From NCBI GenBank assembly GCA_965198225.1, contig CBDAOY010000008.1, positions 320,001 through 384,000 of the forward strand: a stretch of DNA of 64,000 bases, read 5' to 3'. The translations under genes were made by a program, and so were the position numbers. This stretch comes from Terriglobia bacterium. Its GTDB lineage: Bacteria > Acidobacteriota > Terriglobia > 20CM-2-55-15. A model generated the notes under the pieces. That model did no database searches and was not told the origin of the DNA. It saw nothing but the letters and a program-made list of their open reading frames with translations. Below, one piece after another: positions 20,317 through 31,335 of this stretch (position 1 is its first letter; every line of letters starts with the position of its first letter).

Positions 20317-20542
20317 GACGTCTTCCCAAGACTCACAAACTGCCGGCCCTGCCTACGCTCTCGACCCCGATCTGGGTCTTCAAACTGTGGTCCAACCCCG
20401 AATTCTTACCTCTGCCGACCTAAACGGGCTGGCAATTCGACGTCTTCCCAAGACTGCCTACGCTCTCGACCCCGATCTGGGTCTTCAAACTGTGGTCCAA
20501 CCCCGAATTCTTACCTCTGCCGACCTAAACGGGCTGGCAATT
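20317..20542. repeat. Direct tandem duplication (89-nt exact core, period 105)
   Basis: 20349-20437 is identical to 20454-20542; both copies are preceded by gacgtcttcccaaga. Confidence 0.95.
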
Positions 20543-29778: not shown

Positions 29779-31226
29779 GTGGCAGAGCAGAAGCTTTTCG
29801 ACGTCGCGATAATGGGAGCCGGACCCGGGGGCTATGTCGCGGCGATCCGCGCGGCACAGTTGGGCTTGTCTGTAGCGATCATCGAGAAGGACACCCGGCT
29901 CGGGGGGACCTGTCTGCTCCGCGGCTGCATCCCGACCAAGGTGCTGCTCCACGACGCCGGGCTTCTTCAGAAGATACGGCGCGCAGCGAGGTACGGTTTC
30001 AACACAAGCGACGCTGACGTCGACTTTTCGAAGATACAGAAGCGTAAGAATGACATCGTCGCCAAGCTGACCAAGGGCGTCGAATACCTGATGAAGAAAA
30101 ACAAGGTTTCGAGCTTCAAGGGCACGGCGTCAGTCGACGGTCCGGGACGGATATCCGTCAAGGGCGGTGGCGCGGGGGTCGAGGTTCGGGCGAAGAACAT
30201 CATCGTAGCGACCGGTTCGGAACCCAAATCCCTGCCCGGCTACGACATCGACGGTCAATTCGTAATCACCAACAACGAGGCATTGGACCTGGACGCGATC
30301 CCGAAGTCGATGGTTATCGTCGGCGCCGGAGCGGTCGGTGTAGAGTTCGCCTCTATTTACGCGAGTTTTGGAGCGAAGGTCACTCTGCTCGAGGCCCTGC
30401 CCCACATCGTTCCGCTCGAAGACGAAGATGTCTCCAAGGAACTCGCACGCTGGATGAAGAAGCAGGGTGTCGATGTGTTTCCGGGCGCAAGGCTCGAAAG
30501 CGCGAAGACCGTGAAGGGTGGGGTCGAAGTTACTTTCCGCACGGCGAAGGACGAAGACAAGCGGGTCAAGGTCCAAAAGCTGCTCATGGCGACTGGAAGG
30601 GCCCCGAACACTTCAGGAATCGGGCTCGACAAGGTCGGAGTGCAGGTCGACGCACGTGGCTTTGTCCAGGTCAATGAGTTCATGCAAACCGGTGCCCGGA
30701 ACGTTTACGCCATCGGCGACATCGTGCCGACACCCTGGCTCGCCCACGTCGCGTCCGCCGAAGGGATCGTCGCGGTCGAGCATATCGCGGGGAAAAATCC
30801 CGTACCCCTCCGTTACAACCAGATTCCGAGTTGCACCTACTGCGAACCCCAGGTCGCCAGCGTCGGCCTGACCGAGAAAGCCGCTGGTGAGGCGGGCCAC
30901 GCTGTGAAGGTTGGCAAGTCGGCGTACCGATCCGACAGATTTAGGACCTCCCGGTCCTAAAGTTTCCATTTGCAGCGTTGGGCAACATGATCGAGGACGC
31001 GACTGAGGGGTTCGTGAAGGTGGTCGCGGACGAGAAATACGGCGAAGTCCTGGGCGTCCACATGGTCGGTAACGGTGTTACCGAGTTGATCTCAGAAGGC
31101 GTCGCTGCCATGGGGCTGGAAGCTACTGCCGAGGACCTCATCCATACAGTGCATCCTCATCCGACTCTTTCCGAAGCAGTTCATGAGGCCGTGGAGGGAA
31201 TCTACGGCGTACCGATCCACCTTTAG
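29779..31226 (+). pseudogene. lpdA: Dihydrolipoyl dehydrogenase split by a 44-nt insertion (30920-30963)
   Basis: GAGPGGY, GGTCLLRGCIP, GAGAVG in 29779-30960; C-terminal HPHPTLSE in another frame (30978-31226); removing the insert gives continuous KVGKFPFAALG. Confidence 0.9.
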
Positions 31227-31228
31227 GA

Positions 31229-31320
31229 CGTTGCCCGTTATCCGTAGGCCGTAGGCCGTTGTCGCGCGCCCGAGCCGACGGGGTGGTTCTTCTGACTACT
31301 GACCACCGACAACTGACTAC
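31229..31320. repeat. Heptamer arrays (families A and B) between lpdA and lipA
   Basis: cgttgcc cgttatc cgtaggc cgtaggc cgttgtc; ctgacta ctgacca ccgacaa ctgacta. Confidence 0.8.
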
Positions 31321-31335
31321 TTGTATACTATCCAC

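Follow-up and report, generated by a model that had tools for sequence, protein, structure and literature searches.

The 44 nt that split lpdA in this assembly do not belong to the working gene and do not signal recoding; they are a unique chimeric insert whose parts were copied in series from two templates, the 3′ end of lpdA itself and the left end of an IS4-family element present elsewhere in the genome. The gene is intact in the sequenced populations, and the reading we prefer, to which we give a probability of about 0.58, is that a real but non-representative DNA molecule entered the assembly consensus. A first-pass annotation of the 64-kb stretch analysed here (the window, to which all coordinates without a contig name refer) had left the choice between a templated repair insertion, an assembly chimera and an element bypassed by the ribosome. 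Of these, bypass is rejected: the insert arose either by a private templated insertion or through an assembly error.

The interrupted lpdA gene and its intact counterparts

The open frame that starts at 29779 (+ strand) encodes 380 residues of dihydrolipoyl dehydrogenase up to the AAG codon at 30916-30918, behind which it reads TCG GCG TAC CGA TCC GAC AGA TTT AGG ACC TCC CGG TCC and is ended by a TAA at 30958-30960, the in-frame stop inside the insert that had been annotated. The C-terminal 87 codons of the gene follow at 30963-31223 in the +2 frame, with their stop at 31224-31226 (Table 1). Pfam detects Pyr_redox_2 and positions 1-32 of 110 of Pyr_redox_dim in the 5′ part, and positions 34-109 of the same domain in the 3′ part; because these two portions abut, the break is clean, and both halves of the gene are intact, as they had appeared to be at first sight. 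AAGT is present at both 30916-30919 and 30960-30963, and owing to this repeat the placement of the insert is ambiguous by 4 nt, with 30916-30959 through 30920-30963 all fitting. When the 44 nt are excised, whether as 30919-30962 or as 30920-30963, the frame is rejoined in the manner proposed and reads ...VKVGK-FPFAALGN... in translation.

Table 1 Positions of lpdA, its insert, the donor sequences and comparable scars in the assembly.
Feature	Location	Strand	Evidence
lpdA 5′ part, 380 codons, FAD/NAD domains and start of dimerisation domain	29779..30918	+	TIGR01350, Pfam
lpdA 3′ part, 87 codons and stop, HPHPTLSE active-site region	30963..31226	+	Pfam; orthologous to 3′ ends in relatives
44-nt private insert	30919..30962	+	Absent in 4/4 aligned relatives and in contigs of 3/3 DNA runs
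Segment 1 of insert, exact copy of lpdA 3′ end (31205-31218)	30920..30933	+	Two occurrences in window, two in genome
Donor of segment 1, native codons Y-G-V-P-I near lpdA stop	31205..31218	+	Alignment with relatives
Segment 2 of insert, positions 9-42 of IS4-family left end	30931..30964	+	BLAST of IS against genome, 34/34 identity
Perfect hairpin UUUAGGACC-UCCC-GGUCCUAAA, inherited from IS end	30940..30961	+	Fold; 11 exact genome copies
Site of private 3-nt deletion (GGC)	30985..30986	+	Alignment to relatives; contigs of 3/3 DNA runs
IS4-family element, one full copy	G000 C3:122325-123643 (L006:1484-2802)		BLAST
SelR/MsrB gene split by 53-nt IS piece, Pfam 1-61 and 67-115 of 116	C4:330547-330599 (L034:548-600)		Translation and Pfam
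Short-chain dehydrogenase (SDR) gene, last 22 codons in another frame behind 58-nt IS piece	C9:833430-833487 (L026:531-588)		Translation and Pfam
PrmC gene interrupted by 72-nt IS piece	C7:754319-754390 (L029:920-991)		Translation and Pfam
Protein kinase-PD40 gene frameshifted by 120-nt perfect repeat and 10-nt spacer (130-nt local duplication)	C6:161893-162142 (L031:1394-1643)		Translation and Pfam

The 5′ part of lpdA alone scores 448-450 bits against the lipoamide_DH model TIGR01350 (450.1 bits in the genome-wide comparison, cut-off 408.8), and the split gene is the sole locus in the genome above this equivalog cut-off. A search for further lpdA copies, which the first-pass annotation had suggested, returned none above it, the three runners-up reaching 373.0, 372.4 and 357.8 bits. 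Rescue by a paralogue was rejected, as these three loci, named as FAD-containing oxidoreductases and 30-31% identical, all fall under the cut-off. Since lpdA is the only lipoamide_DH locus, lies directly upstream of lipA and serves a genome with a single E2 acyltransferase gene, its loss across the population would be costly, but with only one E2 perhaps non-lethal.

The region was recovered from 23 of 30 related genomes (G000 included) in a DNA search. Eight loci of relatives were compared with the window by BLAST, and in every one the matched stretch was 41-44 nt shorter than in the window. Four relatives were aligned (G001, G002, G003 and G012, three congeneric and the fourth from the same family, at ~70% nucleotide identity), and every one of them is without exactly these 44 nt, reading GG, then AAAGTT, GAAGTT or CAAGTT, then CC at the insert site with nothing between. 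The insert is therefore exactly 44 nt long and private, and the excised form of the gene matches the lpdA of all four. The same alignment exposes a private 3-nt deletion, unmentioned in the first-pass annotation, 23 nt downstream of the insert, between 30985 and 30986, where the window lacks a GGC codon (GGCAA---CATG vs. GGCAAGGCCATG in the relatives) and encodes G-N-M in place of G-K-A-M. An exact search with the 28 nt left of the insert gave no records in metagenome and genome contig collections.

Public sequencing runs tell the same of the organism's own populations, in which lpdA is intact. Nineteen runs contain the stretch, with a top word share of 0.90 and none higher, and the share predicted for a sequence without the insert and with the GGC is 0.893. 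Four of the 23 runs listed were compared in detail, three of DNA (from three studies and under three host labels) and one of RNA. In each of the DNA runs one contig joins 30915 directly to 30960, skipping 44 nt with no other letters in the flanks, and the same junction contig has the GGC behind 30985 at full depth; the depths of these contigs (30.1, 6.95 and 8.3) equal the entire local flank depth. The flanks are identical over 1401 nt in all three, the insert and the GGC being the sole differences. Otherwise, all matches listed over 30931-30964 belong to IS copies, whose loose ends are CAGTAGTG before and AGAACTGACG... behind. Reads lacking the insert had been named in advance as the sign of an artefact, and at the level of contigs all three DNA runs are uninterrupted; these are Logan contigs and not raw reads, and as contigs drop rare variants, the evidence is for the presence and dominance of the intact form and does not extend to an absence of the insert form. 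The RNA run (X10) yielded a 264-nt contig identical to 30582-30845 together with an IS copy over 30931-30964, neither of which covers the junction. Parts of the stretch are contained in the sponge metatranscriptome runs X10-X12 and X15, which fits a sponge-associated organism.

Should none of the three DNA runs be the source sample of the assembly, the strain assembled could still carry the insert as a fixed allele. On this account lpdA would have been killed recently by a templated insertion in the assembled strain and the runs would represent intact sister strains, which is conceivable as they may derive from other samples than the assembly, and as the loss of E3 might be tolerated where only one E2 gene is present. 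We consider such a fixed pseudogene unlikely: sister strains would have to be identical in all three runs over the 1401 nt of flanks save for the insert and the GGC, none of the 19 runs containing the stretch has a word share near 1.0, and the gene struck is the only one to pass the lipoamide_DH cut-off.

Templates of the inserted bases

Two exact donors, the 14-mer at 31205 and 34 nt of the IS, together cover 30920-30964. The 14-mer, CGGCGTACCGATCC, is found exactly at 30920 and at 31205, its donor thus being located 285 nt downstream of the insert copy; it occurs twice in the window against 0.04 expected (none of 100 shuffles reached two), and these are its only occurrences in the whole 6.4-Mb genome. 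At 31205-31218 it occupies the orthologous Y-G-V-x-I position and aligns with TACGGCGT...AT in the relatives, from which it follows that this copy is native and the insert copy derived. The second segment, taken from the IS, overlaps the first by TCC and native lpdA by AAGTT. Its hairpin 22-mer, TTTAGGACCTCCCGGTCCTAAA, has 11 exact copies in the genome (the reversed control has no matches), of which ten sit at positions 18-39 of IS left ends and the remaining one in lpdA.

In a three-way alignment the sequence runs from lpdA (...GGCAAGT) to the 3′-end 14-mer, through a TCC crossover to the IS left end and through an AAGTT crossover back to lpdA. Microhomology is present at two of the three junctions (TCC, 3 nt, and AAGTT, 5 nt); at the left junction, where AAGT meets CGGCG, none is clear in this alignment. 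Judging from these junctions, the matched AAG codons on either side of the insert appear to be a by-product of the AAGTT microhomology between IS and lpdA. There is also a resemblance between the lpdA tail and the IS end (TCC.AC...TTTAGGAC), which may explain why they were joined.

These donors change the derivation given in the first-pass annotation, which had drawn the insert from the 3′ end of lpdA. That holds for the first 14 nt (identical to 31205-31218), and fails for the second hairpin, which is IS-derived at 34/34 positions; the proposal that the TTTAGGAC hairpin had been copied from 31222 is not borne out, the match being just 8 nt long and present three times in the window against 0.71 expected. 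Likewise, the templated insertion that it favoured had a local template for one segment, 285 nt downstream, whereas the larger segment, with the perfect hairpin, comes from the IS4-family element, a donor beyond the window and so out of reach of that annotation.

The element itself is 1319 bp long, with terminal repeats CAGTAGTGTCCGACA and 9-bp target duplications, and encodes a 386-residue transposase (Pfam DUF4372 and DDE_Tnp_1; 271.7 bits with the NCBIfam IS4-family model, cut-off 115). The genome contains it as nine complete copies (99.9-100% identity) and a tenth that breaks off at position 923, none of them within the 64-kb window, and the near-identity of the copies indicates that it was recently active. 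The insert was rejected as a product of transposition, as a MITE and as a solo IS end: it starts at IS position 9, the outer 8 nt being absent, it has no right end and no 9-bp duplication, and only the 4-nt AAGT repeat flanks it. Six of the ten IS copies sit in CTGACTACTGGCTAC-like intergenic repeats. Just downstream of lpdA, at 31290-31322, the window contains a CTGACTACTGACCACCGACAACTGACTAC repeat, the kind of sequence usually targeted by this IS, and one may speculate that a transient copy at this site would bring the IS left end near the lpdA tail. Short intergenic GTAGGCCGT/AACGGCCTACGG repeats occur at 31240-31262 and at many sites in the genome.

Two hairpins had been described in the insert. 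Both are indeed predicted, in a fold of −18.8 kcal/mol for which ViennaRNA prefers GUCGG/CCGAU in the first of them; the stability of the fold is only modestly above that of shuffled sequences (z = −2.46, with five of 200 shuffles equally stable). The fold bears on the proposal of a programmed translational bypass, in which ribosomes would take off from the AAG at 30916, land on the AAG at 30960 and make full-length LpdA while skipping 44 nt. Bypass of the T4 gene 60 type combines matched take-off and landing codons with a stop directly after the take-off codon and a nascent-peptide signal upstream. In Magnusiomyces mitochondria, byps are short inserts that are related to one another and interrupt several coding genes. 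As in both systems, matched codons flank a gap of ~50 nt with a hairpin in lpdA, and the two halves of the gene are intact. Unlike them, it has no stop behind the take-off codon, a point on which the first-pass annotation was right, the next codon being TCG and the first in-frame stop the TAA at 30958; the insert is unconserved, being found in none of the four aligned relatives, and is missing from the dominant allele of all three DNA runs; and the hairpin is an IS end next to a copy of the lpdA tail. Nor did a family of byp-like inserts emerge in the genome, where the 11 exact copies of the 22-nt hairpin comprise ten in the IS and the one in lpdA, and where the other short inserts differ in sequence. 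With lpdA normally whole, ribosome hopping is unneeded. The bypass reading, which we hold to be extremely improbable, fails because inheritance and presence in the population, to be expected of a bypass element, and a stop after the take-off codon, the mark of the gene 60 model, were each looked for and each found lacking.

Comparable scars elsewhere in the assembly

The genome bin is 97% complete in nine contigs, and the insert in lpdA is one of many scars in it. Short exact pieces of the 1319-bp IS occur elsewhere, with positions 1-35 at C7:419930, positions 88-130 at C7:554197 and positions 84-141 at C9:833430, while positions 135-258 recur at C5:186178 with 96.8% identity. Other IS families have likewise left short pieces in the genome, and genes for SelR/MsrB, a short-chain dehydrogenase and PrmC are broken by such pieces of 53-72 nt (Table 1). 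A deletion and frame-opening scan of 105 orphan short repeats was discarded as a count, as its top matches were mostly intergenic REP-like palindromes (GGTGTAGGTGCGGTCTATGACCGCACAT...), and only the cases then checked by translation and Pfam were retained from it. The same GGTGTAGGTGCGGTCTATGACCGCACAT palindromes are found at many sites across the genome. Two more sites contain pieces of the element: at C7:419615-420402 the 5′ region of a gene is duplicated over ~365 nt, and the joint is occupied by 35 nt left over from the IS left end (positions 1-35); at C7:554166-554300 (L033), upstream of a 324-codon open frame, is a scrambled set of pieces of the IS 5′ region, comprising AAGGTGTT, IS positions 88-130, CACCGATGCA and AACGATTTGATTTC.

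Local duplications form a second class. Among 72 unique two-copy repeats, 31 are local perfect direct duplications of 28-187 nt, 33-355 nt apart. Their unit length is divisible by three in 10 of the 31, and about one-third is expected without selection. For at least 10 of the 31, a longer frame is opened when one unit is taken out, the case confirmed by translation being that of the kinase gene at C6:161893, which Pfam identifies as a protein kinase with PD40 repeats and for which a TolB-like assignment was accordingly dropped. The window itself contains an 89-nt perfect direct duplication at 20349-20542 (C8:340349-340542), with a 16-nt spacer copied from the sequence just upstream, and has the look of two variant copies of a single stretch set in tandem. 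Contig C1 (17 kb) is an alternative version, at 99.6-99.9% identity and with structural differences, of part of C6 (143595-172113), from which we conclude that the bin contains more than one haplotype; the comparison of C1 with C6 as haplotypes gave structural differences and nothing decisive for the insert.

The scars weigh on both sides of the proposal that lpdA is a fixed pseudogene of the assembled strain. An IS-rich genome, in which the IS4-family element alone accounts for the near-identical copies described above, and which encodes Ku and LigD, could well suffer such an insertion, and several other genes are broken in it. The scars, however, fall with no sign of selection on their length, as the 10 of 31 units divisible by three indicate, and they strike conserved genes.

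They bear likewise on the view that the insert is purely computational, i.e. that consensus building or polishing stitched together pieces of misplaced reads and no such DNA molecule ever existed. Passages of a study of long-read metagenome assemblies (Trigodet et al. 2025, 10.1101/2025.04.22.649783) describe indels with minority read support or none, stretches of contig that one read alone supports, and sequence falsely duplicated, with read-unsupported indels and duplications in all the long-read assemblers tested. The present case is like those in that a frame-breaking indel in a contig differs from read-derived contigs and in that the assembly has many private duplications, 31 of them local and perfect, including the one at 20349-20542 with its two variant copies in a row. 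It is unlike the cases in those passages in that the inserted bases have exact donors and microhomology at their junctions. Overlaps of 0-5 nt at the junctions are far under any assembler word size, and native lpdA shares no long word with the IS by which IS reads could be recruited. Blunt, exact IS-internal pieces within unique genes, with none of the flanks lost, speak for DNA chemistry more than for software, and we rate a purely computational origin as rather improbable.

Formation of the insert and its significance

The anatomy of the insert, with two exact donors, crossovers of 3 and 5 nt and a small deletion adjacent to it, reads as the signature of serial template switching or filler repair. 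A broken or stalled DNA end at AAGT/TTCC may have been extended on the IS end and then on the lpdA 3′ end before being rejoined, which would amount to break repair with templated filler. The switching could have taken place either in the cell or during library preparation, and the resulting molecule would be a minority or single-molecule variant that the assembly then took into its consensus, in the way documented for long-read metagenome assemblies. It speaks against this reading that, if each of the roughly 40 scars derived from a rare molecule, the assembler must have favoured rare, longer alleles many times.

Serial template switching of the MMBIR/FoSTeS type is known chiefly from eukaryotes and, in E. 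coli, from quasipalindrome mutagenesis. The lpdA insert shares with it the short templated segments, the nearby and distant donors, the microhomologies of 3-5 nt and a small deletion close by; it differs in having been read from sequence alone.

End-joining enzymes are encoded in the genome, with Ku at 309.2 bits (TIGR02772, cut-off 150) and the polymerase domain of LigD at 248.8 bits (TIGR02778, cut-off 214.7). Dupuy, Sauviac & Bruand 2019 (PMC6379672) showed experimentally, in a Sinorhizobium system of an I-SceI cut and an electroporated cassette, that bacterial Ku/LigD end joining can capture DNA at double-strand breaks in the chromosome. As in that system, a non-homologous piece of DNA is inserted at a putative break here, and Ku and LigD are encoded; unlike in the system as described there, the pieces, of 14-146 nt, match DNA of the cell itself, and their origin in vivo is putative. 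It is a tentative and, in our estimation, doubtful proposal that in this acidobacterium breaks in the chromosome are patched with 14-146 nt of filler through Ku/LigD end joining. The companion proposal, that such filler would be copied or captured from multi-copy IS elements of the cell and from sequence at a distance of a few hundred bases, is held just as tentatively.

As a biological device the insert is not a real feature; its value, a modest one, is as a flag of genome quality and as a lead to filler-DNA repair. It illustrates cleanly, and in a way that can be checked, how a frame-breaking insertion in a high-quality bin would be turned by annotation into a false pseudogene, and dozens more such insertions are present in the same assembly.

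To our knowledge, filler-DNA capture in bacteria has so far been shown only with engineered breaks. The inserted bases in lpdA are not noise, and if raw reads contain such molecules they would be a record of filler-DNA break repair in an uncultured acidobacterium. If the scars did arise in the cell, they would together make up a genome-wide natural record of this process, comprising lpdA, the SelR, SDR, PrmC and kinase genes and about 30 local duplications.
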